A DNA stretch of 64,000 bases from Candidatus Omnitrophota bacterium (lineage in GTDB: Bacteria > Omnitrophota > Omnitrophia > Omnitrophales > Aquincolibacteriaceae), in the NCBI GenBank assembly GCA_903856085.1, contig CAIOAT010000016.1, positions 8,581-72,580 of the forward strand, given 5' to 3'. The translations under genes and the position numbers were made by a program. The notes beneath the pieces were generated by a model. It ran no database searches. It had not been told where the DNA came from and was given only the letters and a program-made list of their open reading frames with translations. Below, one piece after another: positions 24 through 27,130 of the stretch; positions within the stretch are counted from its first letter, which is position 1, and every line of letters begins with the position of its first letter.

Positions 24-965
24 TTACATCCTCAATTTCTGGCGCATTTTATTCAGGACAATCTCGGAAACAAGGTTCAGGACAAACGTAAAAGTAAAAA
101 GCACGGCTCCGACTAGAAAAAGCGCGTAGTAGTGTTCGCTGCCCTGGGCTACGGAACCGAGCTCCGCAGCAATATTGGCGGTCATAGTCCGGACACTTGA
201 AAAAATATTACCTGTTACAAGTGCGGCATTGCCGGTCGCCATAAGCACGATCATCGTTTCCCCGAGCGCTCGCCCGAATCCAAGAATGATCGCCGCCGAG
301 ATCCCCGAAACTGCGGCCGGTACGACCGTTCCCCACACTGTCTGCCACTTCGTGGCACCTAAGGCATACGAGGCGTCCCGCAAGTCTTTGGGTACTGCCC
401 GCATCGCGTCCTCCGCAATGGTAATCATGATCGGCAGAACAGCCAGGGCTACCCCGCAAGCACCGACAAAAGCATTCAAGCGGAACTTGGTATGGAAAGT
501 ATTCTGAATAAAGGTCGCGATAAAAGCCAGCATCACAAATCCGATCACAACCGAGGGGATACCAGCCAAAAGCTCCAGTGTTGGCTTCAGAATTTCACGA
601 ACTTTGGAGGGGGCAAGTTCTGAAAGATAGATTGCACAGCCGAGTCCGAGAACGCCGGCAATGACCGTAGCGGGAAAAGCCACAAGAAGGCTGCCGCAAA
701 TAAGCGGAATGAGGGAATACTTTGGGACTTCGGATATCGATTGCCACATCATCTTGAAAACATAGTGTCCTTCCCAATCGTCGTACACCCATTTCCCAAT
801 CAGGTCAAATGGATTGGCCGTAAAAAAGAACCGCACAGCTTCTTTGAAAAGAAAAACAAAAATCAAGGCCATAATAAGCATCGACGAGATCCCTGCCAAA
901 AGCAAAAGCTTCTGGATCAGCCACTCTGAGAAATTCCCGCTTTTTTTCGTCAGTCGATGTCTCAT
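24..965 (-). CDS. pstC: Phosphate ABC transporter permease PstC
   Basis: 313-aa multi-TM ORF with an ABC-permease EAA-type loop (IAEDAMRAVPKDLRDASYALGATKWQT). It lies directly downstream of pstS on the same strand. Confidence 0.9.
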   Translation of the reverse strand: MRHRLTKKSGNFSEWLIQKLLLLAGISSMLIMALIFVFLFKEAVRFFFTANPFDLIGKWVYDDWEGHYVFKMMWQSISEVPKYSLIPLICGSLLVAFPATVIAGVLGLGCAIYLSELAPSKVREILKPTLELLAGIPSVVIGFVMLAFIATFIQNTFHTKFRLNAFVGACGVALAVLPIMITIAEDAMRAVPKDLRDASYALGATKWQTVWGTVVPAAVSGISAAIILGFGRALGETMIVLMATGNAALVTGNIFSSVRTMTANIAAELGSVAQGSEHYYALFLVGAVLFTFTFVLNLVSEIVLNKMRQKLRM

Positions 966-1048: not shown

Positions 1049-1924
1049 CTACTTCTTCAGTTTCAATGGAACATACCCGATTTCTTCGACGATCTTCTGA
1101 CCTTCCGGACTCATGATCCAGTCCAGATAAGCTTTGATCTCGCCCTTGGGCTTAAAACCGGTGTACATATACAAATAGCGCCAAATAGGATACGTCCCGC
1201 TCCAGGCTGCTTCATAGTCAAGCGTTCCATCAGCCTTAACCGGGTTGATGGCCGGGGACTTATCATCCCTCTTCACGGAAAGGATCTTCACTCCCGGCTG
1301 CTTAATGTAATAAGCTGCGCCCCCGTAACCAATACCATTGGGATCCTTGGAAACCGCATTGGCAATCGCCGAGGTTCCGGGCATGGTCTGACAATCCGCC
1401 GCATAATCTTTGTTCTTGAGAACTTCTTCTTTGAGGAATGTATAGGTCCCGCTTGACGACTCACGGCAATACCGGAGGATGGGTTGATTGGGCCCGCCAA
1501 TTTCATTCCAGTTATTGATATTACCCATATAGATCCCCTGAATCTGTTTCAAGGAAAGTTCCTTGATAGGATTTGAAGCATTTACCACGATGGCCAAACT
1601 ATCCATCGCGACCTTGAATTCTTCAGGATAGTAACCGGCGGCTTTCGCTTTATCCATCTCGCTGGCCTTGATCTTGCGGCTGGCGTTCGCGATATCGGTA
1701 GTCCCATTGATCAGGGCTGCAATTCCGACACCTGAACCACCTCCGGTCACCTGGATCGCGGCTTCAGGGTGCTTCTGCATGTAGACTTCGGCCCACTTCT
1801 GCCCCATGACCACGATCGTGTCGGAACCCTTGACAGTGATGTTCTTCGCGGCGAAGGCTGACGGAATTATGGCCGCCAAAGCCATCACCAAAACACCCCT
1901 TATAACCCAACGCGTTGTTTTCAT
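1049..1924 (-). CDS. pstS: Phosphate ABC transporter substrate-binding protein PstS
   Basis: PstS-type blocks are present (ITVKGSDTIV, VTGGGSGVGIAALINGTTDIANASR). Signal peptide MKTTRWVIRGVLVMALAAIIPSAFA. SD AAAGGAG lies upstream of ATG 1924. The ORF-track start at 1966 lies upstream of the predicted -10 and adds a non-signal extension. Confidence 0.9.
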   Translation of the reverse strand: MKTTRWVIRGVLVMALAAIIPSAFAAKNITVKGSDTIVVMGQKWAEVYMQKHPEAAIQVTGGGSGVGIAALINGTTDIANASRKIKASEMDKAKAAGYYPEEFKVAMDSLAIVVNASNPIKELSLKQIQGIYMGNINNWNEIGGPNQPILRYCRESSSGTYTFLKEEVLKNKDYAADCQTMPGTSAIANAVSKDPNGIGYGGAAYYIKQPGVKILSVKRDDKSPAINPVKADGTLDYEAAWSGTYPIWRYLYMYTGFKPKGEIKAYLDWIMSPEGQKIVEEIGYVPLKLKK

Positions 1925-1949: not shown

Positions 1950-1994
1950 AGTTTAAATGAAAGCATCCTGGTTAGATGTAAAATTCCTGTAAAC
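1950..1994 (-). promoter_or_regulatory. Pho-box-like direct repeat plus candidate -10 in front of pstS
   Basis: Top strand has TGTAAAA (1977-1983) and TGTAAAC (1988-1994), 11 bp apart. On the gene strand this reads GTTTACA-N4-TTTTACA. A candidate -10, TAAACT (1950-1955), lies 21 nt downstream. The element sits between the porin stop (1997) and pstS. Confidence 0.5.
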
Positions 1995-1996
1995 TC

Positions 1997-3583
1997 TTAG
2001 AACTTATACGTCATATCGAGCTGAAACCGGCGAACCGATTGATCCGTTTGCATACCCGTCGTATAAATGGAGTTTCTCTGAGTGATCGGTCGAACGAGGT
2101 AACACGCGCCATTCACGGTCAGATAATCGGTGAGGTTGTATCCCAACTTGATGACACTGCCATCTTTGTCAGCACCACCATAGTTATACCCGCCAAAGTC
2201 GCTATCATTAAAAGCGCCAGGTACAGAGTTTGCACCGATATACTTGTATTGGTAGCTCGTCTGCCAATCCCCCTTTTTCACGAGCTTCCCGAGCGTGAGA
2301 CCTAGCGACCAGGCATACTCGCCACCCTGCATCGTGTAATTTTGGGCCGCTCCAGTCTGAGCACCAATTCCAGATGTGTTGCTCATATTCCGCGCAAATT
2401 CAGCGAATGGTTTTACGGGAACACCGTAAGGATAGAGATTAACCTCCTGATACAAGCTCAGAACATTAAACTTTCCTGCCGCCAACCTAGATCCGTCAAT
2501 CGGATTTCCATTAGCGAAACTCGTAGCAGGAGTGCTTCCATTATAGGCATTCCAATTGGAGTTCTCGGCGTAATGCTGATAATTGTAAACAGAAAGTGCC
2601 GTAAGCGCATCCACAGGCCTTTCCATTCCGGGAACATAGAAAACGGGATTCAACCCAACTTGATAAGCGAACAGGTTGGCGTCTTTTCCCTGGGAAGGTT
2701 GATTTGCCACGCCATTAGCGGTGGCATAGGTAGCTGTATTCCCATTCTCCTGGAGGATGAATTGGCCCAAGGTAGCGTAGGCTTTAAGATCCAGGTTATC
2801 GGTCTTTAAGAGCCGCGCATCGATCTTTTCATAGGCACCTTCCGGTTTCAGGTCCCGGTCCCAGATCATATCGGTAGAACCTTTTTCGAAAGGATTGTTG
2901 AATTTACCGCCAGTAACCTCCAAACCCGAGACTGCCAAATCCCCGACGGGATTGATCTTGGCCCATTCCGGAGTGTAGGTTGCGTAAGCCTTTTCGATCC
3001 AGATGTTTTTGAAGGTGAAATCATTACCAAGGGTTTGATTCGTAGAGATGGGGTCGGTGTTACCGTTGGCCGAAGTCGAACCGCCGCTGGCCATCGAAAA
3101 ACCGACTTTCATTTCCGGATTGAATGTTTTTTCAAATCCATAGCGCAGGCGGATACGAAACCGGTTTCTGTCCGGCTGGTAAGTATTAACGCCCGCAGGA
3201 GCTGTCGTTCCATTCCAGCGATTACCGGTTAGGCCAAACGCCTCATATCTCAAACGAAGATCTCCGCTGAACTTGAGGTCCTTGAGCCACTTGTTGGCAC
3301 CGCCGGTCGAATCGCTCAAGCGCTGATTGAATTCGGCTTCACTCATCGGAGGAGTTGCTTCCACGCCGCTAGGAGCCACAGCGATCTTCCCGCCGTTACC
3401 TGCCTTGAGCGCCTGGATCTCTGATTTCTGCGCCATGACGGTCGACTGCAGATCGTTCATCTGTTTCTGCATGTTCTTGACCATATCCATGAGCTGCGCT
3501 TCATCCGCGAACGCCGCAGACGAAAAAGTCATAAGGCAAACGACTAAAATGCTCGCCAGTTTTGTGAAAGGGTGGTATTTCAT
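1997..3583 (-). CDS. Outer-membrane beta-barrel porin with N-terminal coiled coil (candidate phosphate-regulon porin)
   Basis: SD GGAGGA precedes ATG 3583. Signal peptide MKYHPFTKLASILVVCLMTFSSAAFA. Heptad-like segment QLMDMVKNMQKQMNDLQSTVMAQKSEIQALKA. About 440 aa of G/Y/N-rich alternating strands follow, ending in ...LDMTYKF (terminal Phe typical of OMPs). The ORF-track start at 3784 is rejected because it has no SD and lies upstream of the predicted promoter. Confidence 0.7.
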   Translation of the reverse strand: MKYHPFTKLASILVVCLMTFSSAAFADEAQLMDMVKNMQKQMNDLQSTVMAQKSEIQALKAGNGGKIAVAPSGVEATPPMSEAEFNQRLSDSTGGANKWLKDLKFSGDLRLRYEAFGLTGNRWNGTTAPAGVNTYQPDRNRFRIRLRYGFEKTFNPEMKVGFSMASGGSTSANGNTDPISTNQTLGNDFTFKNIWIEKAYATYTPEWAKINPVGDLAVSGLEVTGGKFNNPFEKGSTDMIWDRDLKPEGAYEKIDARLLKTDNLDLKAYATLGQFILQENGNTATYATANGVANQPSQGKDANLFAYQVGLNPVFYVPGMERPVDALTALSVYNYQHYAENSNWNAYNGSTPATSFANGNPIDGSRLAAGKFNVLSLYQEVNLYPYGVPVKPFAEFARNMSNTSGIGAQTGAAQNYTMQGGEYAWSLGLTLGKLVKKGDWQTSYQYKYIGANSVPGAFNDSDFGGYNYGGADKDGSVIKLGYNLTDYLTVNGACYLVRPITQRNSIYTTGMQTDQSVRRFQLDMTYKF

Positions 3584-3655
3584 AAGATTGGATCTCCTCC
3601 GGTTGAATGGGAATGGGGCAGAATTCTTTTCTGTCCGTTTGATTTTCATGCCGGA

Positions 3656-3710
3656 AGTATAGAAAACCCGTGTCAGGTCTCCATGATGGAAATGTAAAGA
3701 AATTGTAAGG
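3656..3710 (-). promoter_or_regulatory. Four-half-site Pho-box-like array plus -10 upstream of the porin gene
   Basis: Gene-strand half-sites are CCTTACA (3710-3704), CTTTACA (3699-3693), TCCATCA (3690-3684) and CCTGACA (3677-3671), spaced 11, 9 and 13 bp. A 9-nt gap follows, then TATACT (3661-3656). The array lies about 70 nt upstream of ATG 3583. Confidence 0.55.
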
Positions 3711-3790
3711 AAAAAAGTGACGGCTTTCGGATGGAGCAAGGAACAACTTGCTAACAACCTGCTAGGAGCTAACATTGTGGACAAGATTCA

Positions 3791-3819
3791 GAAAAGCTCC
3801 CCCTCCCTGCAGGAAGAGG
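3791..3819 (-). terminator. Candidate rho-independent terminator after ppk2
   Basis: The minus strand reads CCTCTTCC-TGCA-GGGAGGGG, an 8-bp stem with two G-U pairs, followed by GAGCTTTTC. It lies 100 nt downstream of the ppk2 stop and upstream of the porin promoter array. Confidence 0.4.
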
Positions 3820-3918
3820 ACTGGAATGGAGGCGTGGGATCACCTGAAGACTTCCCATTGGTAGCGCAGTTTCACCTCGACGCAATTACTTAGAGGGGAC
3901 CCCGTTTTTCAGGGCTTC

Positions 3919-4776
3919 TTAGTAAACCGCCTGCACAAATCTCTGTTTGTTGAGAGGCGGGCGTTTGTAACCTTTATCTTTCTGGCGCTTTGGAATGACG
4001 AGTTTCTTTTGGGTCACATCTCTATAGGGGATCTGAGCCAATAGATGTGTCATGCAATTCAGGCGGGAACGTTTTTTGTCGTTCGAGTCCACCACATGCC
4101 AGGGAGAATCCTTGGTGTCCGTATGTTCAAACATGACATCCTTGGCTTTTGAATATTCCACCCAGCGAGCGCGGGCTTCTAAATCCATCGGGCTGAGTTT
4201 CCAGCGCCGGGCGGGATCCTTGAGCCTTTCCTGAAAGCGCGCTTCCTGCACGGCATCGCTGACCGAAAACCAGTATTTAATGAGAATAGTTCCGGAACGG
4301 ATCAGTTCTTTCTCGAATTGCGGGCAAAAATCCAAAAAATCCCGGTACTCCGCATCCGTGCAAAAGCCCATCACGCGTTCGACGCCCGCACGGTTGTACC
4401 AACTGCGATCAAAAAGCACCACCTCCCCGGCGGCCGGCAAATACGCGGCATACCGCTGGAAATACCACTGTGTTTTTTCCCGCTCCGTAGGAGTTCCCAA
4501 CGCCGCGATCCGGACAATGCGCGGGTTCGTGAGTCCCGTTATCCGTTTGATCACGCCCCCCTTACCGGCCGCATCACGCCCCTCAAAAAGCACCACGACC
4601 TTGAGCCCCTTAAACTTGACCCACTCTTCCAATTTGACCATCTCGGTTTGCAGCCGCTCGATTTCCCGGTCGTAAATCTTGTTTTTAAGTTTCTTGGGCA
4701 GGCCGTCGAGCTTTCCGGATTTTTTCTTCAGGATCTTCCTTATTTCTTCTTTCACATGTTGATCCTTCTTGCCCAT
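3919..4776 (-). CDS. ppk2: Polyphosphate kinase 2 (single-domain PPK2)
   Basis: 285 aa with a PPK2 P-loop region (VVLFEGRDAAGKGGVIKRI) and the FDRSWYNRAGVERVMGF block. Confidence 0.9.
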   Translation of the reverse strand: MGKKDQHVKEEIRKILKKKSGKLDGLPKKLKNKIYDREIERLQTEMVKLEEWVKFKGLKVVVLFEGRDAAGKGGVIKRITGLTNPRIVRIAALGTPTEREKTQWYFQRYAAYLPAAGEVVLFDRSWYNRAGVERVMGFCTDAEYRDFLDFCPQFEKELIRSGTILIKYWFSVSDAVQEARFQERLKDPARRWKLSPMDLEARARWVEYSKAKDVMFEHTDTKDSPWHVVDSNDKKRSRLNCMTHLLAQIPYRDVTQKKLVIPKRQKDKGYKRPPLNKQRFVQAVY

Positions 4777-4840
4777 AAGAATCCTCCGATCGTCTAAAGC
4801 CTTTTTACTTCTTTGAATGTTCCTGCCGCAAAACAGAGGT

Positions 4841-5398
4841 TCAGATCTTCACTTCGTTGGGGTAAGCGAGTTTCTTAAGCTCTTCTATCATTTGCTCGAC
4901 ATTTTTTGTTTCAGCGCTATCAGGGCCTATTTTTTTCAGACGAATATTCAGCGCCTTGTTGAGAATATCGATGGCGGCCGTGTATTTTTTTTGCATGGCA
5001 TAAGCAACACCAAGGTTAAAATAAATCGCCGCCATTTCCACGCCTTCTTTGTCCAACTTTTTAAGATCGATCAGGACAGCCAGCTTGTAGAGCTGCTCGG
5101 CTTCCGACGCACGCTTCAGGTACAAATAAAGATTTGCCAGATTATTCATGGTATCTGCGGCTTCCAGGCTGTCTTTCCCGTACTCCTCTTTCGCCACCTG
5201 AACGGCTTTTTCTGCGGCTTGAAGCGCTGCCGGCAAGTCCCTCGCTTCATTTGCGGCAACGAGCTGATCGTTCAAAGCTTGTATCTTTGCCGCACCTGCA
5301 CTGTGATCCTTCGCGAGCACAGGCTCCGCCTGCGCAGTAAGACAGATGAGAGCACTCAGAGTAAGCATTGAAATATAGCGGCATTTTTTCATCATCAT
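4841..5398 (-). CDS. Secreted tetratricopeptide-repeat protein
   Basis: Signal peptide MKKCRYISMLTLSALICLTAQA. TPR-like 34-aa repeats are present (ADTMNNLANLYLYLKRASEAEQLY; AAIYFNLGVAYAMQKKYTAAIDIL). SD GGAG lies upstream of a triple ATG (5392/5395/5398). Confidence 0.7.
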   Translation of the reverse strand: MMMKKCRYISMLTLSALICLTAQAEPVLAKDHSAGAAKIQALNDQLVAANEARDLPAALQAAEKAVQVAKEEYGKDSLEAADTMNNLANLYLYLKRASEAEQLYKLAVLIDLKKLDKEGVEMAAIYFNLGVAYAMQKKYTAAIDILNKALNIRLKKIGPDSAETKNVEQMIEELKKLAYPNEVKI

Positions 5399-5497
5399 TT
5401 TAAATCTCCGGATTCCTGAAACTATTTCTCTCCTTAAGACGCAGGATTGTAGTCCTTTGGAAAGCGGAAATCAAATCTTCCGAAGCTTTCTGATAGT

Positions 5498-5537
5498 TTT
5501 TACACATATTTATCATCACCGTCATGGGGTATTTACA
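5498..5537 (+). promoter_or_regulatory. Pho-box-like array on the plus strand (four half-sites)
   Basis: Half-sites are TTTTACA (5498-5504), TTTATCA (5509-5515), ACCGTCA (5518-5524) and ATTTACA (5531-5537). The 11/9/13 spacing is identical to the porin array. It lies 60-100 nt upstream of small ORF 5599 and in the upstream region of the divergent TPR-ppk2 unit. Confidence 0.45.
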
Positions 5538-5598
5538 TAGAAATGCGAGACTTGGGTCAGAATAAAGAATAAAACAAGCTTGCGAAAGGGGATCAACC

Positions 5599-5832
5599 AT
5601 GATCAGCCAATTAGACTGCCTCGAAGACTTGATGGATTGGAATTCTTGCACCGAAATCAAATCGGCGCCTACCGCACGCGTGGGAAAGAGTTTTTTCCCT
5701 GTTTTTATGATCGAGTCCGCAACGACATCACCGGCCGGCAAAGAAATGGACTCGTGGCTTATCCGGTCCGGGCTTTCTCCCCAAGCAAGCCTTGCCTTCA
5801 GCCGGATCGGGATCTACACGGATTTTTCTTAG
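5599..5832 (+). CDS. Orphan small ORF (77 aa), hypothetical
   Basis: ATG is preceded by GAAAGGGGA (SD-like, 7-nt spacer) and sits downstream of the plus-strand Pho-box-like array. I recognise no family. It is the only plausible plus-strand gene in the first 26 kb. Confidence 0.3.
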   Translation: MISQLDCLEDLMDWNSCTEIKSAPTARVGKSFFPVFMIESATTSPAGKEMDSWLIRSGLSPQASLAFSRIGIYTDFS

Positions 5833-5901: not shown

Positions 5902-6717
5902 TCAAGAGACGGGAACAAACTGGGCCTGAGCGGCTTCCCAGAGCTGACGGGCCAGATCTTTCCGCTGACCCGCTCTTATCGGCCTGTCGCCAAAAACAAA
6001 ACGCGCCTTGAAGGTCCTCATCCGAAGCAGGTCCTTCAAGTGCGGCATGAATTCCATATCGCCCCACCAGCAAACAGACCGGCTGGCCGGGGTTTCTTCC
6101 CGGGGCGTTCGATAGAAGATCGTAACAAAATGGACAGGATAGAGCCTGTCGGCGGCCGATCTAAAAAGCGCCGCATTAAAAGGAAGGATCCCGCTTCCTG
6201 CGCTGCTGGTTCCTTCCGGAAAAAACAAGACACCTTTCCGTCCCTCGAACGCCTCTTCGATCTCCCGGTTGACGCGGATCGCATCCCGGGCATTGTCCCG
6301 GTCCACAAAGATACAATCGAAAGCTTTGATCACGCTTCCAAGAAAAGGCCATTCCTCGACTTCCCTTTTTGCAATAAAAACAGCGTCAAGCTGGGTCGCT
6401 AGGGCGATGATATCGACATAGCTTAGATGATTGCTAATAATAACATAGGGGGACTCCGGCGGCGTCCCGCGAACAGTGATGCGCATTCCAAGCACGGCAG
6501 CTGAGGCACGGGCCCAGAATCTGAAAACGATCTTCCTCCAGCGCCAGCCGGCCGCAGGAAGAAGGAACCTTCTGAAAAAAATAAGAAGGTAGGTCAATAC
6601 AAGCACCGAAAAAATCAAAAAGATGCGGACCCGGGCTCGGATCGAACCCCGGAGGCTCTCTACGAAACCGGCTATTTCAGTTATGAAAGAAGTCAAAGGT
6701 CTTTTCATCGAGATCAT
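5902..6717 (-). CDS. Lysophospholipid/lyso-aminolipid O-acyltransferase (PlsC/LPLAT family, OlsA-like)
   Basis: HX4D motif NHLSYVDI, FPEGTSS block and an N-terminal TM helix. The start is uncertain (ATG 6717 or 6708). Either start overlaps the 3' end of the upstream N-acyltransferase gene. Confidence 0.8.
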   Translation of the reverse strand: MISMKRPLTSFITEIAGFVESLRGSIRARVRIFLIFSVLVLTYLLIFFRRFLLPAAGWRWRKIVFRFWARASAAVLGMRITVRGTPPESPYVIISNHLSYVDIIALATQLDAVFIAKREVEEWPFLGSVIKAFDCIFVDRDNARDAIRVNREIEEAFEGRKGVLFFPEGTSSAGSGILPFNAALFRSAADRLYPVHFVTIFYRTPREETPASRSVCWWGDMEFMPHLKDLLRMRTFKARFVFGDRPIRAGQRKDLARQLWEAAQAQFVPVS

Positions 6718-7474
6718 CAATGTCGAGAAGTGTAAGAAAATCAATAGTGCCGAACGCGCGGTCCACGGCAGGTTCACTGCAGATCCGCGCCCCAAAATTC
6801 AGATAGGCCTTCAGCAAGCGAGGGATCGTCTTTTTTTTCAAGGGATACGGTGCCTCGAGAGGCTCCCCACATTCAAAATCAGGACAAACGCCAAGAAAAA
6901 TCTCCGGATGCAAATAGCCATGGGTGGATAAATAATCAAACGCATGCCAACCCTCACGGGGGTCCTGTTCCGTCAAAGAGGTGCAGCCGAAGAGGTACCG
7001 CTTCCCTTTCATCTCGAGATATTTCACAAGCCCCTTCCACAAGAGGAAAAGAACTTTGACGTTCCGATGCTCCTTTGCAATGCACGCGCGACCGATCTCG
7101 ATCCCGTTCTTCAAGTATGCGTTCGGGAACCTAGTAAAATCGAATTCCGCGGCAGAATAAAAACCAATATTCGCCTGCGCCATTTCGAAGGTTTGAAGAC
7201 GATAGGTCCCGACGGGCACCCCCGTCCTGTTCTCGCAGATAACAAGATGATCGCAATAGCGGTCAAAACCATCCTCGTCCTTACCGGACAAGTGCGACCG
7301 GAGAAGTCCCTCCTGCAGCTCCAGGTTAAAAACCCGATATCTTAAGCGGAGTACAGCATCCAGATCCGGTGAATCCCCTTTGAGAAAACGAATGTGGAAC
7401 CCTTTGTCCGGAGGAGCAGAGACAAGGTCCGAACGGACCTCCTGGCTTGCGCCTTTTTCCTGAACGGCGCTCAT
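6677..7474 (-). CDS. GNAT-type N-acyltransferase of the OlsB/hemolysin-like family (aminolipid synthesis)
   Basis: Blocks LRLRYRVFNLELQEG, FDRYCDHLVI and IGRACIAKEHR are typical of the Acetyltransf_5/OlsB family. ATG 7474 overlaps the PHP gene stop (ATGA). Confidence 0.75.
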   Translation of the reverse strand: MSAVQEKGASQEVRSDLVSAPPDKGFHIRFLKGDSPDLDAVLRLRYRVFNLELQEGLLRSHLSGKDEDGFDRYCDHLVICENRTGVPVGTYRLQTFEMAQANIGFYSAAEFDFTRFPNAYLKNGIEIGRACIAKEHRNVKVLFLLWKGLVKYLEMKGKRYLFGCTSLTEQDPREGWHAFDYLSTHGYLHPEIFLGVCPDFECGEPLEAPYPLKKKTIPRLLKAYLNFGARICSEPAVDRAFGTIDFLTLLDIDDLDEKTFDFFHN

Positions 7475-9231
7475 AAGCACCTCACCACAGATGGATTTTC
7501 AAAAAGTTCATTCCGCCGCTTAAAAAGAATCTTTTCTTGAGACTCATCCCCGCGATACTCCCCATCTGCGAGGTTGCAGAGATACTTCAGATATTTTTCA
7601 ACAGCCTCAAAAGTACCGTCTTCGGTATCGGGGAGATCGGCGCGGGAAACTTCCGGAGAAAACGTCACAAGACATTTGACATCCAGCATACGGGCCGCAA
7701 TAAACCCAAGCAATCCGATCGGCCCCGGCGTATCGATCACGATACGATCGGGATTCCATTTCTCGATCACCGAGAGCGCCCCGAGAACCGATGGAATCCT
7801 GAGCGAGAAACAACCGAAAAATCGTCTTCGAAGGAGCCCGATCATCGGCAGGTCGAGCGCCCCGGAACAACCCAGCGGCCTTCGCGGACGGGAACAGACA
7901 GCCACTCTGACAGACTGACCTCTGGCGAGGTTCCGCTTGGAGCGGAATTCTTCGAGATCCCTCAGCGACCTTACGGCATCCGAGAACCAGAGACTCCTTT
8001 CCGGGATTTTCGCCGACCTGGCCGGACATTCTTCATGGAACTCAAGGTCTTCCAACAGCCTCTTGTTATGGTTCAACAAACGGAGTGCAGCAAAGAACGG
8101 CGCACCGAGGAATGTGGTCGCAATAATGCCTTTTTTCAGCCAGCGGGCCTTTCCGGCACGCCCCTGCTTCGGCCCAAGAGCCTGGATCATGTTCCGGACG
8201 ATCTCATCGAGCAATATTGTCAGTTGTTTGTAAACAAGATCGATCCTCTGGACGGAGGAGAGGGAGCTATTCGAGGCATACCCTCGGAAAATACCAGAAA
8301 AGAATTTCCCGAGAACCTTATGAAAATTCCGTGGACTTCGTACAAGAAAAAATGAGAGGACGCGAAGTAATCCACCGTGGGATTTATTCCCCCGAAGCAT
8401 CCCGCCAATTTCGCGGGAGATGAACGCGGGGCTCTTTTTCCCAGCGAGATCACCATAAACGTGCCCCCCGATCAAGATAAAGCTCAAAGCCATGGACTTA
8501 TAATCGTGGTTACGGCCAAACCCGAATGTCTTTTTATCACGAAGAGATTGCAGAAAATCTTGCTTTGTCCTGCCAGAGGCCACCGTGAAGGTATCCCCGA
8601 TAAAAAGACCAGCATGATCATCCGACCCGCCTGTCAGTCCCTTAATCCAGCTGTCTTCCGAGAAAGGTTCGATCCGATGCTTGGCATGCAACCGTTCGAT
8701 ATCTTCGTGGGTCAAATGCTCGATGGCCTCGGTCCATTCCTGGTTATGACGGGTGGCATGAGCACCGTTCACACTTTCAAAAACATCGAAAAGCAAAATA
8801 AGCTTTTCAAGGCCGTCGCGATCAATCTTGCGATTCACGCTGAGCGTTGCGTGAGCAACCGAATAGGCGAGCCTTTCTGCACGGATATAATCCCTGAAAG
8901 CATAAATGTTCGAACGGAGCCCCAGGAGCTTCGCGAACTGTTTTTCTGTAAGATCGAAAACAAGGATGTGAACCTTGCAATGGTTCTCCGGGAAAACAAC
9001 CGAAAACTCACAACTAACAAAGGCTTCGGCGGGATACTTGTGGGCCAGACGGAGCGCTCCCTCAATAGAATTGTGGTCGGTCACCGTAACAAAATCCATT
9101 TTCTTGAATTTTGCAACGCGATAAATATGCTCGAGCTCCGTATAGGATTCACGGACCCCGAGCGCTTTCAACGTCCACTCATCTCCATCCAGAGAATACT
9201 TCGAATGCAAATGCAGATCGGCTCTAGCCAT
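7471..9231 (-). CDS. PHP-domain metal-dependent phosphoesterase fused to the N-terminal half of a GT-B (GT4-like) fold
   Basis: PHP motifs: DLHLHSKYSLDG, VTDHNSIEG, GGSDDHAG. The C-terminal ~170 aa resemble a GT4 N-domain (VRVAVCS..., PDRIVIDTPGPIGLLGFIAARML) with no C-half. ATG 9231 has SD GGAAAGGAA. The track start at 9255 is a TTG. Confidence 0.7.
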   Translation of the reverse strand: MARADLHLHSKYSLDGDEWTLKALGVRESYTELEHIYRVAKFKKMDFVTVTDHNSIEGALRLAHKYPAEAFVSCEFSVVFPENHCKVHILVFDLTEKQFAKLLGLRSNIYAFRDYIRAERLAYSVAHATLSVNRKIDRDGLEKLILLFDVFESVNGAHATRHNQEWTEAIEHLTHEDIERLHAKHRIEPFSEDSWIKGLTGGSDDHAGLFIGDTFTVASGRTKQDFLQSLRDKKTFGFGRNHDYKSMALSFILIGGHVYGDLAGKKSPAFISREIGGMLRGNKSHGGLLRVLSFFLVRSPRNFHKVLGKFFSGIFRGYASNSSLSSVQRIDLVYKQLTILLDEIVRNMIQALGPKQGRAGKARWLKKGIIATTFLGAPFFAALRLLNHNKRLLEDLEFHEECPARSAKIPERSLWFSDAVRSLRDLEEFRSKRNLARGQSVRVAVCSRPRRPLGCSGALDLPMIGLLRRRFFGCFSLRIPSVLGALSVIEKWNPDRIVIDTPGPIGLLGFIAARMLDVKCLVTFSPEVSRADLPDTEDGTFEAVEKYLKYLCNLADGEYRGDESQEKILFKRRNELFENPSVVRCL

Positions 9232-9385
9232 AAATGATTCCTTTCCTGGACTCAAGATCTACCCAGAATCATTATCGACGATCAACATGATGGGAGTGTT
9301 TGGCGGAGGAAAATTCCGTGTAAAATCATTTTGAAACGACGTAATCAGCTCTGGGGAAACAGGTTAAAGAAACCCTGCCGAACGC

Positions 9386-13038: not shown

Positions 13039-14031
13039 CTACTTTTTGGCCGCTTTAAAAACTTCATGGGCCATTTTGGCGGCTCCTAAAATAACCGCAT
13101 TATCCTTCAGTTTGGACGGGACGATTTTCACCACTTTGGCGAGGGGCTTAAGCGCGTAAGCTTCCATCTCACGTCTGACCTCAGGAAGAATGATCTTTCC
13201 CATCGCCTCCATCATTCCTCCTCCCAAGAGGATCAATTCCGGATTCAAAATGTTCACCACATTCGCTAGCGCAACCCCGAGCCACCGGGAACGGCTCCGG
13301 ATCAGCTCCTCTAACGCGATATCCCCCGCTTTGATAGCGCGGGACAAAGCACCGCTGCGGATTTTTTTTACGTTATAACCGATCTCTTCGAGAAGATGCG
13401 GGCACTTCTGCCGCAGCAAGAGGAACCCCGCCTCCGATGCAATAGCATTCCTGCCGACCAAAGCTCCGACTTTTTGGCGCGACGTTTCAAAATCAGAAAA
13501 AGAAGGAAGTGACAGAAATGTCTGGCCGATCTCACCAGCTCCTCCAGAAGCGCCACGGTAAAGATGTCCGTTGATGATGAGCGCCCCGCCGATACCCGTT
13601 CCTAGGAAAACCCCCACGACTTCCCGATAACCCCGCGCTGCGCCGAATTGCTGTTCTCCGAAAAGCCCCGCATTGGCATCGTTTTCAATAAAGACCGGTG
13701 TTTTCAGCTTCGCTTTCAGTTTTTCAGCAAGTGAATAATTCTTAAAAAAAGATACGTTGGAGGAGACTTTGACGATCCCTTTATAGATATCAATGATTCC
13801 AGGACAACCCACACCGATGGTTACAAGATCACTCAGGTCCGACCCGGTTTCTTCCAGAACTTCCTCGATCCCGTCAATGAGCTTGTTGAAAAAGAACCTC
13901 TCGCCGCGATTACCGTCCATCTCAAGTTTGACGGTCTTTTTTAAACTAAATTTCCTGTCAAAAAGACCTATCAGAATCTTGGTCCCGCCCAGATCGATGC
14001 CAAGGATGAACTTCTTTTTCTTGCCCGCCAT
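13039..14031 (-). CDS. ROK-family sugar kinase lacking the zinc CxCGxxGC motif (candidate glucokinase, possibly polyphosphate-dependent)
   Basis: Motifs GIDLGGTKILIG, ENDANAGLFGE and GTGIGGALIING. The only cysteines are in GVGCPG and RQKCPH, so the usual ROK zinc motif is absent. SD GGGGAGAG precedes ATG 14031. The track start at 14061 falls inside the predicted -10. Confidence 0.75.
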   Translation of the reverse strand: MAGKKKKFILGIDLGGTKILIGLFDRKFSLKKTVKLEMDGNRGERFFFNKLIDGIEEVLEETGSDLSDLVTIGVGCPGIIDIYKGIVKVSSNVSFFKNYSLAEKLKAKLKTPVFIENDANAGLFGEQQFGAARGYREVVGVFLGTGIGGALIINGHLYRGASGGAGEIGQTFLSLPSFSDFETSRQKVGALVGRNAIASEAGFLLLRQKCPHLLEEIGYNVKKIRSGALSRAIKAGDIALEELIRSRSRWLGVALANVVNILNPELILLGGGMMEAMGKIILPEVRREMEAYALKPLAKVVKIVPSKLKDNAVILGAAKMAHEVFKAAKK

Positions 14032-14059
14032 AGACTCTCCCCTTTCAAAATTGATTTCC

Positions 14060-14103
14060 ATTATAATGGCTCAGGGAAGTTTTTATGTAAAGCATTTGTA
14101 AAG
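14060..14103 (-). promoter_or_regulatory. Pho-box-like repeat plus consensus -10 for the ROK-ppx-ppk1 operon
   Basis: Top strand has TGTAAAG (14086-14092) and TGTAAAG (14097-14103), exactly 11 bp apart. On the gene strand this reads CTTTACA-AATG-CTTTACA. TATAAT (14065-14060) lies 20 nt downstream, and ATG 14031 follows about 29 nt later. Confidence 0.6.
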
Positions 14104-14279: not shown

Positions 14280-17200
14280 TTATGCCGCTACTTTAACAGC
14301 CTTTGCATTTCTCCAGGAAGCAGCAAGGAACTCTGTGACAAGCATCAAGGCATCTTTCATGCCCCAAAGATCCCGTTTTCTTCCTAGCTCAAAAAGTTGC
14401 CGACTTGTGACAAGATACCAGAGAAGAGAAAAAAGAACCTCCGGGTCAGAGCTCTTCAACTCCTTATCGTAATAAACAAGATTCCCAACGCAACTCTTCA
14501 CCTTTTGGACTTCGCGGCGATCGATTCCGACATAAGCATAATCCAAGCGTTGATATTGAGGTCCGGTGACTAAGGGACGCAGGAATTTCAAAATGGAAGC
14601 ACTAATGCTATCAGATATCTCTACTAGCTGAAAATGTCCGGTAGGAAGCTCCATTTTCTTTATCTTTTGTTCGATTGCCTCTTTCCCGGGAAATCGACTC
14701 CTCTCGAACAGGATAATGACACGGAACGGCAGCCGCGAAAGCAGCAAAAGATGCTCATCGCGAATTCCGATCCTCGCGTCCAGGAAAAGGGTGTTCAAGG
14801 CATTGGCCCGCTGCGGAAGAGCGCGGAACATTCCCATTCCTTTTTGGAAGGCTAAAAAATCGTCCCCTGATAGCGCTAAAAGCTCCTTCAGATCCGGTCC
14901 TGTGCTTTCTGAAAGAAAACTCGCGTCACCCAAAAGAGATTTTAAGCGCGGTAAAAGTTTTACATCCTCCGGTCCTAGGATCCATTCCGTGATCTTGATG
15001 GCAACCAGAAGACGGACTTTCTCCGAAACAACCGGCGTCACGTCTTCTTGCAAGGAAATCTCACGCGTAACCTCTTTGGGATTGAGTTCTAACGCTGGGG
15101 GTTTTTCGGAAGTTCTGTCTTCTCTCAATTCGGAACGCAGCACCCCACCAGGGCCCACAGCAGCCAACGCGGTTGCAATCGCCGAAAAGTGCGTCGTTAG
15201 AATCTTGTAAGTACGCGGCGTAAAGACACCTCGTTTTTCACGCAACATCGTAGAAACATCCTCGGGGGAGAGGGCCACGATCTCAACGGCATCATCTCCC
15301 GGTCTAAATTCTTTCCAATTGAACTCTCCATTGAGCGAAAAATGAAACAACTTTACATCCTCTTTTCTTGTGGTGGGAACTTGCCTTCGCCCCTCATGAT
15401 GAACTTCATAGGAAAGAGGAGGGAGCTCCCGAACTGGTAATGAGGTTAAGGCCGCGGGAAGAGGGCGGCCATCACGGAGTTCTTCAAGGAACCCCCTCTG
15501 GATTGCGGCTTCCGGACTTTCTCCGGGCTCCAGATGCTCAAAAACGGGAAGATCCAATAGACCCGGATTACTGGAAGTTAAATTACTGCGCCGCTGAAAA
15601 ACAACTTTTCCATCCTTGGTCACAAATGCGGCAACCTTTAAGGCCGCCAGACCTCTTGCATGCCCCTGTTTTCTTGGCAAGTGTACGATTTGATCGCCTC
15701 GCGTATCACGAAACATAAAAATCTGCCGATCCGCGAGCAATGAACCTTCCCCCTCCAATCGCTCGACGGCTGTACGGTTCGCCAGCTCCGGAAAAGATAC
15801 CTCGAGGCGCTTCATCCGCTCCAAAATCCCAGCCCGATTGCTCCCAGATATAAAAAAATGATCGGAAGGCGCCGGAACAAAAGCCTCCACTTCAGGAGGC
15901 TTCTGCGCAGTCGCACGAAAGGTCTCCCACAGTTTTTTCCCCATCGTGCTATAAATCTTCGCATATGGATTGGCGGCATCTTGTCCATCCGAAAACGTTT
16001 TTTGATTATGAGCGAGCCTCTGAAGATTAGGCGACACCGAAGTATTCCCTCGAAGCTGAAGATCGAACTCAGCAACCACTCTCGCAAAATCCTCTACGAG
16101 ATCCACCACAAAAGCTCCATATTTTGAGATCAAGCTTTCTGTTTTTTTACGAAATACGTCTATCAATCCTTCCATCTGTTGACGTTCCTCCTCCGTCCTT
16201 GAAACAAGAGCCATGGGCCCTTTGGGAACTGCAAATTGAGGCGTGATCGCATTATCCAATGTCAGACCGGTCCCGAACAAATGCCCATACTGACCTAAGG
16301 CACCTTTCAATTCTTCTGGGCGACGAACCACATGCTCCACATCATGCCTCGGAGAACCGTTACGCCCCAACAACACGGGATGCCGATCTGTTTCAACTTC
16401 TTCCAGAGAAGCAAGCCGTGCGTCAATAACGATCTGACTTCCCTGGTTGTTATAGCTGATCACATTCGAGCTCAGGTCGCCTCCAGGGAAAATGATCTCT
16501 CCATGCTTCACGCCTTGCTCCCTGAAGTCGCCTGCCATCCGCAAAGCTTCGGCAAGATTCATCTTAAAGACCGCCATAGCAACCGCCAAAGGAATACCTG
16601 GCTGCGGGAACCAATAGATCTGTAATTTTTTACCCAACGACTCCGCCAGATCGCGAGCGGCAAAAAATTGTCCGGCATTCCCCGGGAAAAGGCCGTCGGA
16701 TTCCGCTACTTTGAAACGGAAATGTTTCAGAACATGATCCTGCGCTACCATTGTTTCAAAAAAATTCCGATTCTCTCCGTTTTTAGGCGGGAGCAAAATG
16801 ATCACCTCGACGTCCTCCCTCAAATTTTCATCCAAAAGCGCCCGGCTCATCTTTGCCATCATAAGATTTTCTCCGGCGACATCGTCCATCTGGGAAAGGG
16901 CAACTTCCCTCCTGGGTTCTGAGGCCGGTCGTGACATTTCATATTGTTTGTTTCTCATACGTTTCGCGGACGCCCGTAAGGATTGGATCTCACGTTTGAA
17001 AGTCCCGTAACCATTTCCACTAAGATTCCTCAACATCGGCCCCACATGCCTCCAAACTGAGAAAAGGGTCCACAAAACACCAAAGATTGTCGGAACTGTA
17101 ATCAACAACTGGTGCAAACCAAATATAAGGTTCAGGATGGGTACAATAAAAAGAATCGCCACTCCGGCCACCGCCAATGCCCGGCCAAGCCATCGTCCAT

Positions 17201-20200
17201 AAAAATGGTCTAGCTTGTTTCCTTCCAGCTCATCAAGTTCGGCTGTGGGATGGAACGCTTTATGGAGTCCTGCTTTTGCCACGCGCATGGCCTCACGTTC
17301 ATTTTCAAATCCGGATATTCCCAGTTTTTGCATATTGGCCGTCACGCGTCTAAAGCTGTTCAGCGTCACCCACCGATTGATCGCCACCATCAGCGTCACC
17401 CCGAGGCAAAGACGCCATATGGAAAAGGTCCAGAGAACCTTCCGATTGTGCAGGATCTTCTGCCAATCCGAGAACTTCATTCCGTCTTGAAGCAATAACT
17501 TGGGAGGATAAAGATCGATTACCTGGGAAAGGGCAATGAGCCGATTCGACAGATTGAATCCTTCATTAAAATTCTCTGCAAAATCGGCTGATTTTTCAAG
17601 AAACCTCAAAACCTCCTGCTCTTCGATATCATTCCCAGTCCCCCGAGTCGCCTGAAATTGACGGGAAGCCGTCTGAGCGGTCAGGATCGATAAGCGGGCC
17701 AAAATCCCACGGATCTTGACCAGAGAATGCGTGTCGGGTTTCCACATTTCAGAAAGGTCCTCAAAATGTTCCCGGGAAAATCTAAGCAGCGGATGCTGCG
17801 CCAACTCGCTGGCCTTTGTGGTGATCATATCCCTTTCGCCCGAACCCAAGTGCTCATTTTCTAAAAGAAGTCGAGTCCAAGCCTGAAGCGGCTCAACGAT
17901 TTCCTGGAACACCCGCATATCCACGTCATCACCGCGGACCGCTCTTTGTTTATTAGCGTTTCTTTTTAAACGCATCCCGATTTTTCCCGCCTCGTCAAAG
18001 AGAATCTCTAGAGATTCCACGGAATCTCTCCGGAAAAACTTCTCATGCCCTCTTTTTTTCATCAATGCGAAAAAAAGTTTTGGAAGATTCCAGACAAGTA
18101 GAACCAAAGCAAGAACCGGGAAAAAACGCCAACTGATGTAACGAGCCCCAAAAGGGTTCATGAAATACCTCAAGAGAGCCGCTCGCTGCGTGGGATTTTG
18201 TTCTTCCCTTACTAGCTCCAAAAGTCCCAGAACCCCGATCTTTTGTCCGGGATGCATTTGAAATTGTTCCTGAACGGATGCGGGAATCGAATCTATTAAG
18301 CGAAGAGGTGGCGACTTTCTTTCGACAAGATCGCCTTTCTTCTTCGCCCAGGCTGAGGCTTTGGCGGACCCATCGAAAGCAATATCCGCAACACTACCCT
18401 CGCCAAGAATTCCCTCCGTATCGTCGCTGCGGATCACAACTCCCTCCCGTTCACCCAAAAGCCATTGGCTGCTGTTCGCGAGAGGGATCACTGCATACAC
18501 TGTCCCCATCAAAACGCCGCGGGATGTCACGACAGAGACTTTATCTCCTGTTTTAACGCTTCCCGTTTCGACAGGGAGCAGAAAAGGATCCTCATTGGAA
18601 AGACGGCCTGTCCATTCTGCAGAACGGGGGTCAACGCTCGTTCCCAAAAAAACCTCTTTGTTTACAATGCCGGCTTTCGTCACCTGCCCCGCCGCCAACG
18701 TTTGTCCATCTAAAGCAGTAACGCCCAGAACACGACCCCCCACGGGAGCTTTGAGCAGGATGGGCAATCCGCTCCGCTGGATCCCTGCAACGGCCCGCTG
18801 AGCTCTTTTTTCATAGTCCTGGAGAGAGCTTTCGGGAAGAGTCCTAAAGTCCTGGTTCGCCTTACGCATTGTCCGTGCAAGAGTCTCAAGCTGTCTGGCA
18901 ATCTTGAGCTGCCCACCTTGCCCCACAGGGATCCATTCCCCCAAGGAGTCCCCGGCCTTAACCGTTTGTCCATCCCGAACTGTAGCTCGAAAAATTCCGG
19001 CGTCGATCCCGGGAACGGGAGGAACACCGACCGGGATGAACTGTGAAGATGGAATAGTGGTGTGAAATCCGGCATTGTGATGCAATCCTAACGATTCGAC
19101 GCTCGGAGTATTATCTTTTATCAGCTTAATATCATATGCACAACTCGCCCCATGGGCCGGAAGAGATGTGGAAGATGGGAAGCTGAAATGAACTGTTAAA
19201 ATAAATTCGCCGTCCACTCCTTTCGCAAGGTCAAAATGACTTGCTTCCCAATCCAACACATTCACGGAATGCCCATTGACGGAAAGTTCGATATCATCGG
19301 CTCCGGAATATCCCGGAGGAAGAGCAATCTTTATGACCCCCTCATCCAGAGGAACGATCCCCACGGCATAACTACCAGCCGTTGCCGGCCCCTGATCCAG
19401 TGTTTGAACGATTGCCGGGCGGGGCGAAACCAGGATGTCGGCTTCTGCTTCCGCCTTCAGTTGAGCGAGCTCCAGTTGATGTTCGATCCTCTCAAATTGA
19501 TATTGAAATATTGTGTCCCGGTCGAGAGTCCCCGCATCTTTTTCTCCTCTGGCCACCAACCCGCCAAGTTCTCGGATCCTATCTTCCAGAAATTGAGTCC
19601 TGTTATCGCGTTCTGTATCCTCTCCTCTCGCAAGCAGGTCGCCTTTTTTGACAACATCTCCAGGTTTAACGGCATAAGTCATCTTATCTGCCGTCAATGG
19701 GGCTTTGAGCATGACCGCACCGGGAGGATTCACGATTGCTTGTCCTTTGCCTGTATACAAGACAGTTGCTGTGTTTGCGACAGAGTGTTGCTCTTCAAAC
19801 ACTGGTTTGACCTCTGTCCTATCAGAAACAAGGGAGGCTGATGCGACGGAAGACGGCTCTTTCACGGAAGCCTCCTCGTTCGTGACATTCAAAGCATTGG
19901 CAGTCCCGGCTGGGCTTTGAAATGGTATCCCGGAAAAATCTTTCTTCGTGAGTTTCTCCTTTGCGCCTGACGAAGTCATTACCTGTTCTCCTTGAGAAAC
20001 CGCATCGGCCAAGGTTTCGCGCCCATCCACGTTGCCTACACCAAGAATTTCGATGACGGAACTATCCGGAGAGACCGATTGGGGGTTGGATGTCGCATGA
20101 TCGGCTTCAGAAATTTTTGGGCTCTCCGCGGTGGTTGGAAGTGCGGAAGATGGCCCATCCGCAGAAACCCTGTCGGAGAGGACCGATGATGCCGCTGCAA

Positions 20201-25985: not shown

Positions 25986-26096
25986 TTTTTGCCCTTTTCC
26001 AATGGTGGAAGACAACTCTTTAAGGTTTTATAAAAGTTTTTCCTTCTGATCTCACGGAAAGCTTAACTTCGTTGTGAAAACTCTGCATCACATCCC

Positions 26097-26114
26097 GGTA
26101 AAGATAATGTAAAA
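26097..26114 (-). promoter_or_regulatory. Pho-box-like repeat 85-130 nt upstream of the giant ORF start
   Basis: Top strand has GGTAAAG (26097-26103) and TGTAAAA (26108-26114), 11 bp apart. On the gene strand this reads TTTTACA-TTAT-CTTTACC. No convincing -10 was found at the expected distance. Confidence 0.4.
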
Positions 26115-26283
26115 ACAATATTTCCGGGGGGTTAGGACCTTTTATCGTTTGATAGCTTTTGCTATCCCCCGGGAAATCCTTAACGACGAAATGCTCGAAC
26201 AGGAATCTGGGGCGCAAAGTCTGAATCTCTCTATTTGCTCTTCACTGTGCTTTTGAAATGCTCGCAGCAAGGCACATCTCTCC

Positions 26284-26337
26284 ATTTCAAAAATTTCTTG
26301 GAAACCTTCCTTTCAGAAGTGTAAAGAGTTGGTAAAG
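26284..26337 (-). promoter_or_regulatory. Pho-box-like repeat plus candidate -10 in the giant-ORF/phoB divergent region
   Basis: Top strand has TGTAAAG (26320-26326) and GGTAAAG (26331-26337), 11 bp apart. A weaker in-phase site, GTTTCCA, is at 26305-26299. A 9-nt gap follows, then TGAAAT (26289-26284) on the minus strand. The repeat is also about 100 nt upstream of phoB. Confidence 0.45.
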
Positions 26338-26390: not shown

Positions 26391-26419
26391 TTTCAACCTG
26401 TAACGAACTGTGGTACAAT
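26391..26419 (+). promoter_or_regulatory. Candidate sigma70-type promoter of phoB
   Basis: TTTCAA (26391-26396), a 17-nt spacer, then TACAAT (26414-26419). SD GGAG is at 26431-26434 and ATG at 26440. Confidence 0.4.
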
Positions 26420-27129: not shown

Positions 27130-27130
27130 G

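Follow-up and report, generated by a model that had tools for sequence, protein, structure and literature searches.

Predicted four-block PHO-box-type operators ahead of a porin-pst operon and a small orphan gene in an uncultured lake-sediment bacterium

We examined a 64,000-nucleotide stretch of DNA (hereafter the window) from a Candidatus Omnitrophota bacterium, GenBank assembly GCA_903856085.1, contig CAIOAT010000016.1, positions 8,581 to 72,580, whose source population is a lake-sediment metagenome and whose host is an uncultured bacterium. The subject of this analysis is a pair of related promoter elements, each predicted to be a 44-nt operator built of four short blocks: array A, ahead of a porin gene, and array B, ahead of a small open reading frame (ORF) of 77 amino acids (aa). 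The porin gene heads a porin-pstS-pstC-pstA-pstB-phoU cluster, of which pstA, pstB and phoU come next on the source contig beyond the window. Upstream of the porin gene lies a separate TPR-PPK2 unit, from which array B diverges. The features of this region are as follows.

24-965, minus strand: pstC.
1049-1924, minus strand: pstS, with its start at the ATG at 1924, after AAAGGAGAA.
1997-3586, minus strand: porin gene (Pfam Porin_5, PF16930, E 1.7e-40), head of the cluster.
3656-3661, minus strand: TATACT, probable -10 hexamer of the porin promoter, 9 nt past block 4.
3667-3710, minus strand: array A, predicted from its sequence and from the same geometry in 21 porin orthologues; blocks CCTTACA (3710-3704), CTTTACA (3699-3693), TCCATCA(T) (3690-3684) and CCTGACA (3677-3671).
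3798-3820, minus strand: terminator-like hairpin (a consensus match only) 3' of PPK2, setting the TPR-PPK2 unit apart from the porin promoter.
3919-4776 and 4841-5398, minus strand: PPK2 and TPR genes, respectively.
5446-5474, minus strand: sigma-70-type TPR-PPK2 promoter, TTGATT-17-TACAAT, divergent from array B and independent of it.
5498-5541, plus strand: array B, predicted; blocks TTTTACA, TTTATCA, CCGTCA(T) and ATTTACA.
5547-5552, plus strand: GAGACT, probable -10 of the array B promoter, assigned this role by its place 9 nt past block 4.
5599-5832, plus strand: 77-aa ORF, with the ribosome-binding site AAGGGGA upstream.

Set out in an 11-nt register, array A reads CCTTACAATTT CTTTACATTTC CATCATGGAGA CCTGACACGGG TTTTC TATACT on the minus strand and array B reads TTTTACACATA TTTATCATCAC CGTCATGGGGT ATTTACATAGA AATGC GAGACT on the plus strand. 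An earlier sequence-only reading of this DNA had listed eight heptamers with CA ends at 3704, 3693, 3684 and 3671 in array A and at 5504, 5515, 5524 and 5537 in array B, had drawn attention to the 11-9-13 spacing common to both, and had noted a 9-nt gap followed by TATACT (3661-3656) in the porin array; on re-reading the sequence we recovered every one of these elements. The 9-nt gap and the -10-like GAGACT of array B go beyond that observation. Aligned in one register, the two arrays are identical at 25 of 44 positions, or at 31 of 55 when the -10 region is included.

Scanning metagenomes with the porin protein gave 28 loci at 47-91% identity (related loci are cited below by number, as in L083), and the 21 porin promoters with enough upstream sequence (porin identity 52-91%) formed the footprint set for array A. 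The sequence-only reading had offered alignment of orthologous upstream regions as a check on its proposal, which a lack of conservation would have undone; all 21 promoters proved to have the same four blocks, spaced 11-9-13, and the same 9 nt between block 4 and the -10. At this fixed distance the orthologous -10 reads TA[TA]ACT or TATCAT, and an insertion of ~85 nt in the 5' leader, where there is one, leaves the distance from array to TATACT unaltered. Information content averages 1.62, 1.88, 1.47 and 1.69 bits per column in blocks 1 to 4 and 1.68 in the -10 hexamer, as compared with 0.73-1.18 in the spacers and 0.2 in the 40-nt upstream flank, such that the footprint begins at the first repeat of array A while flank and spacers vary freely. 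The remoter porin promoters L102, L106 and L110 retain the register of the array (in L102, CTTTACC.. TTTTACC.. GATCAT.. TCTGACA; in L106, ATTTACA.. TTTTACG.. TGTCAT.. GCTGACA.. TATTGT).

No conserved -35-like hexamer was found 16-18 nt upstream of TATACT in the porin promoters. The sole candidate, TGGAGA-16-TATACT, was dropped because it is absent as a conserved element in the orthologues, and block 4 (CCTGACA/CTTGACA) was rejected as a -35 in its own right, as the sequence 17 nt downstream is CGGCAT, CGCCAT or GTCCAT, none of which has TA as its first two letters. If TATACT is the -10, the span of array A is consistent with the region from about -60 to -20 of a -35-less promoter. We also rejected a GTCA-N8-TGAC palindrome over blocks 3 and 4, which is missing from array B and from L085/L094. 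Downstream of the promoter, the porin 5' leader (3587-3655, minus strand) is itself conserved, with CATGAAAA.AAACG, a GGACAGA...TCTGTCC hairpin and CATTCAACCGGAGGAGA (L086, L088, L090, L101, L107); in several lineages the leader insertion of ~85 nt has a hairpin of its own (CAATT...AATTGGGGC).

The four blocks are not of one kind. Blocks 1, 2 and 4 are TT(T/G)ACA repeats (consensus CTTTACAC) that score about +10 bits each; their offsets of 0, 11 and 33 keep to an 11-bp register. In block 3 the conserved sequence is C[AG]TCAT, with conserved columns C-C-C-[AG]-T-C-A, and its CA lies at offset 20 rather than 22, or 2 bp upstream of the register. The sequence-only reading had called this third site a degenerate copy of the form xCC[AG]TCA with a 2-bp shift; this is one possible reading of a distinct conserved block, which scores about -8 where true repeats score about +10. 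On a half-site matrix derived from the other three blocks it is negative at every offset, and we accordingly discarded it as either an in-phase or a shifted copy of TTTACA. Judged by its sequence, block 3 is a distinct element and not a visibly degenerate copy of the repeat. The same [AG]TCA is found in phase in array B, where it forms repeat 2 (TTTATCA, TTTGTCA), and so looks like a tolerated variant of the core. Block 3 moreover resembles the core of the Escherichia coli Pho box, reading CCGTCAT in one form, CTGTCAT in L100 and ATGTCAT in L106; this likeness, together with the in-phase variant in array B, favours the alignment by CA ends that the sequence-only reading had used.

The resemblance of array B to array A was measured with a 44-column weight matrix derived from 18 unique orthologous porin arrays on other contigs, the window being excluded. 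Array A scores 55.2 bits and array B 20.6 bits, the latter with its match starting exactly at 5498 and as the top non-porin match in the window, where the next-best match reaches 7.0 bits. Across 200 Markov-shuffled 64-kb windows, scanned on both strands, the maxima had a mean of 2.0 (standard deviation 3.7) and a top value of 14.1, and none reached the score of array B. This result and the geometry fixed in 21 porin promoters uphold the earlier proposal of a composite operator as opposed to chance AT-rich sequence.

Array B is conserved with the same geometry in two further lineages, one represented by L090, L112 and L113 (minus strand, 3082/3403) and the other by L111 (minus strand, 3403), with repeat 2 as TTT[GA]TCAT, block 3 as CGTCATG and repeat 4 as [AC]TTTACAT. 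The counterparts of GAGACT are CAGAAT in L090 and TAGAAT in L111, each 9 nt past block 4. Array B and the 77-aa ORF co-occur in all three lineages that have either, while five loci or locus pairs (L084, L087, L088, L114/L115 and L116/L117) have neither and retain the TPR promoter. The TTGATT-17-TACAAT element is kept in the window, L090, L084, L087, L088 and L116, and thus also in loci without array B and the small ORF. Because array and ORF are absent together from loci that keep the TPR promoter, array B is best read, from this comparison of sequences, as a promoter-operator serving the small ORF; it may also affect TPR-PPK2 secondarily. The 77-aa protein has no Pfam or NCBIfam match and was matched only by itself in a database of 5.8 billion proteins. 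Its orthologues in L090 (~2986-2756, minus strand) and L111 (between 3030 and 3400, minus strand) were found by reading the DNA and had not been called as genes. Twenty-seven residues are invariant across the window, L090 and L111, including WL.RSGLSPQAS...S.IG.YTDF, and the protein is variable in its middle and invariant at its C-terminus.

A second promoter architecture is present at other genes of apparent phosphate function. It consists of two perfect TTTACA repeats followed after 20-21 nt by TA.A.T, is kept in about ten loci ahead of the gene next after the porin, and lies one helical turn closer to the -10 than do the four-block arrays. The two-repeat arrays of the window, with the gene string downstream of one of them, are these.

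1977-1994, minus strand: two-repeat array GTTTACAGGAATTTTACA, just past the porin stop codon; 21 nt, then TAAACT (1955-1950).
14086-14103, minus strand: two-repeat array CTTTACAAATGCTTTACA; 20 nt, then TATAAT (14065-14060), upstream of ROK-ppx-ppk1-PHP-olsB-olsA.
14031 down to 5902, minus strand: genes for ROK, ppx, ppk1, a PHP-domain protein, olsB and olsA.
26093-26337, minus strand: two-repeat arrays TTTACATTATCTTTAC (26113-26098) and TTTACCAACTCTTTAC (26336-26321), between a 3911-aa ORF and a divergent regulator gene.

The pattern TTTAC-N6-TTTAC has four matches in the window as against 0.03 expected, all of them intergenic and on the minus strand, which codes for pstS, the ROK operon and the 3911-aa ORF. 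No TTTAC-type repeat match was found in the housekeeping half of the window. A relaxed form of the pattern has 31 matches in 188 kb of related loci and 5 in 801 kb of unrelated loci, and the coding strand carries all 31, some at the porin promoter and the others immediately 3' of the porin gene. From its sequence, the array at 1977-1994 with TAAACT is the predicted promoter of pstS; the two repeats, the 21 nt and TA.A.T are kept 3' of the porin gene in L083, L091-L094 and L097-L099 (two-repeat sites at 6613 in L083, 6534 in L091, 6615 in L092, 6507 in L094, 1950 in L098 and 6524 in L099). At the third location, TAAGCT follows the array at 26114 in the register that the -10 has in array A. The arrays of 26093-26337 may place the giant gene under Pho control, let the two-component system regulate itself, or do both. 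The giant ORF itself (14280-26015, minus strand), with these Pho-box-like repeats upstream, has as its only Pfam match a weak NUDIX domain near residue 3500.

Two starts in the ORF list, those of ROK (13039-14061) and pstS (1049-1966), are over-extended, and the longer ORFs would overlap the promoter elements. The ROK start is most likely the ATG at 14031, where the predicted product begins MAGKKK in agreement with L003. That locus was the only informative result of a genome search anchored on PPK2, a protein too conserved for the purpose; there ROK-ppx-ppk1 comes after PPK2, with a weaker GTTACA-N7-TTTAC ahead of it. Further along the same string, the PHP-domain protein (~586-594 aa) is consistently followed by the ornithine-lipid synthesis genes olsB and olsA (5902-9255, minus strand, in the window), an arrangement that suggests a phosphate-sparing membrane-lipid module. 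In L111 a four-block array of 23.5 bits stands ahead of the PHP gene (309-352, plus strand). The corresponding site in the window (~9327-9270, with GATAAT as -10) is degenerate at -16 bits and was left uncounted.

A candidate binding protein and its partner kinase are encoded in the window, next to the arrays of 26093-26337.

26440-27129, plus strand: OmpR/PhoB-family response regulator (Response_reg and Trans_reg_C domains), proposed to bind the arrays.
27065-28903, plus strand: sensor histidine kinase, HAMP-PAS-HisKA-HATPase, paired with the regulator.

The top NCBIfam model for the regulator is PhoB (TIGR02154, 265 bits), and its best relatives of solved structure are the phosphate regulator RegX3, followed by MtrA and Bacillus subtilis PhoP. 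The kinase scores 413 bits on the PnpS model NF046044, above the cut-off of 400, and 309 bits on the PhoR model TIGR02966, for which the cut-off is 334. Among the scanned window ORFs of at least 150 aa, no further carrier of an OmpR-type DNA-binding domain was found. Orthologues of the pair (regulator 86-90% identical) stand divergently beside the porin array in L083, L085, L091, L092, L094 and L100, and the regulator-kinase pair is upstream of the porin array in L104 and L109 (in L109 only the kinase is visible). We infer from this linkage the strongest computational tie between regulator and operator. The first six of these loci represent a second locus type, with regulator and kinase back-to-back with the porin gene and a pstC ~43% identical to that of the window. 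An extended -10, TGGTAAAAT in relatives and TGGTACAAT at ~26411-26419 of the window, appears to serve the regulator gene.

The E. coli Pho box is positioned 10 bp upstream of the -10, in place of the -35, and pstS there has two boxes, i.e. four units; the PHO box of B. subtilis occupies a promoter range of about -60 to -20. PHO boxes are composed of 11-nt direct-repeat units, which in E. coli have the core CTGTCAT (PMC4415409), and in B. subtilis the box comprises four repeats resembling TT(A/T/C)ACA that recur every 11 bp (Eder et al. 1999, cited in PMC11870197). Blocks 1, 2 and 4 have the core of the Gram-positive PhoP/PnpR type, TTTACA, and not CTGTCAT every 11 nt. The arrays are on the coding strand upstream of phosphate-regulon genes (porin-pstSCAB-phoU, pstS and ROK-ppx-ppk1-PHP-olsBA), and a cognate regulator and kinase are encoded, the first below the PhoB cut-off and the second above that of PnpS. 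The earlier label of a double Pho box is therefore supported by the phosphate gene context, the regulator pair and a core shared with published Firmicute PHO boxes, provided that the box is taken to be of the TTTACA and not the E. coli CTGTCAT type.

The closest likeness is to the boxes of Gram-positive bacteria. As in the PhoP box of B. subtilis, array A has four direct-repeat positions on the coding strand with 33 bp from first to last CA end, would take the place of a -35 at phosphate genes, and would be paired with a PhoP/PhoR-type two-component system. Here, however, the third block is a C[AG]TCAT lying 2 bp off register that is fixed over more than 20 promoters and not variable from promoter to promoter, and the host is not a Firmicute but an uncultured bacterium, the genome bins closest to it bearing the labels Omnitrophica and Brocadiia. 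The pstS box of Lacticaseibacillus paracasei, tttacacaatctttacattcaatgacatgaacatttaca, is found in a promoter fragment shifted by phosphorylated PhoP in an electrophoretic mobility shift assay (PMC11870197) and has the form TTTACA-N5-TTTACA-N5-TGACA-N6-TTTACA. It likewise precedes pstS and shares the core, the 33-bp span and an irregular third repeat; by our own count its CA ends are spaced 11-10-12, and an off-register third repeat therefore has a precedent in a family that tolerates some irregularity. Its third repeat is a recognisable TGACA displaced by 1 bp, whereas the [AG]TCA described here is displaced by 2 bp. In Streptococcus pneumoniae the PnpR Pho box TTTACACAATCTTTACA lies upstream of pst1 and was described as a two-repeat site 92 bp from pstS1 (PMC4913102). 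It is essentially identical to the two-repeat arrays reported here (CTTTACAAATGCTTTACA at 14103-14086; CTTTACACACTCTTTACA in L091), and the window kinase passes the PnpS model; no four-block form was described there, however. With the PhoB box of E. coli the arrays share tandem direct repeats, an activator that would replace the -35 and closeness to the -10, which here is 9 nt away, while the regulator and kinase are closer to RegX3, PhoP and PnpS of Gram-positive and actinobacterial type.

On these grounds we favour, with a probability of roughly 0.78, the reading that arrays A and B are PHO-box operators of Gram-positive type in -35-less promoters under phosphate-starvation control. The assignment to phosphate follows from the genes served, from the PhoB-like and PnpS-like pair linked to the porin array in relatives, and from the match to the Firmicute PHO-box core. 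Under phosphate limitation, the PnpS/PhoR-like kinase (27065-28903) would phosphorylate the PhoB/PhoP-like regulator (26440-27129), which would then bind head-to-tail as two dimers across the four blocks, from about -61 to -18 as counted from the conserved TAnAnT hexamer. The bound regulator would recruit RNA polymerase in substitution for the -35 contact, array A turning on the porin-pstSCAB-phoU operon and array B the gene for the 77-aa protein. Block 3 would most likely serve as a low-affinity, non-canonical contact for the third protomer, filled cooperatively, while simpler promoters of the regulon (pstS, ROK-ppx-ppk1) would make do with two perfect repeats 20-21 nt from the -10. Binding by the regulator, its stoichiometry, activation and the phosphate signal are here proposed by analogy and from promoter anatomy.

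Several observations weigh against this reading. The regulator, at 265 bits, falls short of the PhoB TIGR02154 equivalog cut-off of 296, and the window covers 64 kb of the genome, so that other OmpR-family regulators may exist elsewhere. Block 3 fits the half-site matrix at no offset (best mean -8.0 at the register of the sequence-only reading and -8.7 in phase), and PhoB-type dimers are defined by an 11-bp tandem geometry (PMC4415409) that a 9/13 spacing does not follow. GAGACT is a weak hexamer for the -10 proposed in array B, and the displacement of the two-repeat promoters by one helical turn relative to arrays A and B means that no one positional rule holds for all sites.

A more unusual construction is conceivable, in which the 11-9-13 spacing, with an E. 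coli-like [AG]TCAT inside a Bacillus-like TTTACA array, marks a non-canonical assembly, with the downstream regulator pair bound to sites 13 bp apart or with a second partner reading the third block. We regard it as doubtful; if true, it would represent a four-protomer architecture undescribed for OmpR/PhoB regulators, and array B would bring a new, fast-evolving 77-aa protein family directly under phosphate control, where it might act as a feedback modulator.

A further alternative, also unlikely, is a composite operator with two partners, whereby a regulator dimer occupies the two upstream repeats and a second factor or RNA polymerase reads block 3, either alone or together with block 4. That block 3 is conserved like the repeats (1.47 bits per column) and yet unlike them in any register speaks for such a division, as do the pstS and ROK promoters, which have two repeats without blocks 3 and 4, and the 9/13 spacing, which is ill-suited to an 11-bp tandem dimer. 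Block 4 is nevertheless a good TT(G/T)ACA repeat exactly 33 bp from block 1, the published four-repeat PhoP box of Lc. paracasei is likewise irregular at its third repeat, and the in-phase [AG]TCA of array B has the look of an accepted core variant; moreover, no candidate second factor is linked to the array loci.

We consider it improbable that the main target of array B is the divergent TPR-PPK2 promoter, with the array as an upstream activator or repressor site. The array does begin 24 nt upstream of the -35 of that promoter (5474-5446), and PPK2 is a plausible Pho target, but the TPR promoter has a good -35 and -10 and is kept without array B in the five loci or locus pairs named above. 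Array B, for its part, is present only with the small ORF, toward which its orientation and 9-nt gap to the -10 match those of array A toward the porin.

Still less probable is an operator of some other, non-phosphate member of the OmpR family, such as a KdpE-like regulator. The KdpE site of E. coli is TTTATA-N5-TTTACA, a direct repeat showing that sites of the TTTACA-N5-TTTACA kind are not exclusive to Pho regulators (PMC3264566), and the window regulator lies just under the PhoB equivalog cut-off. The KdpE operator has nearly the same half-site and 11-bp spacing and is read by an OmpR/PhoB-family protein; it differs in having two half-sites only, upstream of kdpFABC, and no kdp genes were found in the window or related loci, where the context is largely one of phosphate metabolism. 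Of the identifiable genes served, the majority are phosphate genes (pst, phoU, ppk1, ppx and olsBA), the exceptions being the 77-aa and 3911-aa ORFs; the kinase scores above the PnpS cut-off, and there is physical linkage between the regulator-kinase pair and the porin-pst loci. Gene context thus excludes assignment to KdpE. A chance cluster of AT-rich -35-like hexamers, or of tandem ordinary promoters lacking a dedicated regulator, is scarcely credible although TTTACA differs at a single position from TTGACA, the sigma-70 -35 consensus, being contradicted by the shuffle test, the two-repeat count and a footprint that starts at block 1, and by -10 spacings (9, 20-22 and 31 nt) that cannot act as -35/-10 pairs.

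The preferred reading, that of PHO-box operators, makes the arrays boxes of Firmicute type in a non-Firmicute lineage, a kind of system that is already known, and the regulation is otherwise of the sort expected for pst operons; what stands out is the fixed 11-9-13 geometry and a small orphan protein under an apparent PHO box. If the reading is true, the repeats would amount to a concrete cis-regulatory code (TTTACA-N5-TTTACA with a four-block, high-order form) for an uncultured sediment lineage without genetics, by which Pho-regulated genes could be predicted directly from metagenome bins. Its predicted targets include the Porin_5 porin, the polyphosphate enzymes, the ornithine-lipid genes, the 3911-aa protein and the 77-aa orphan. 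The invariant, off-register block 3 could further serve as a small natural experiment on the need of OmpR/PhoB regulators for 11-bp spacing.

The remainder of the window, from about 29 to 64 kb, holds other genes, mainly of housekeeping function (TCA-cycle enzymes, rRNA methyltransferases and similar). No Rfam family reached its gathering score in window positions 1-30000. In L114/L115 (4979-5404), a low-molecular-weight phosphatase (LMWPc) gene is inserted between PPK2 and the porin promoter.

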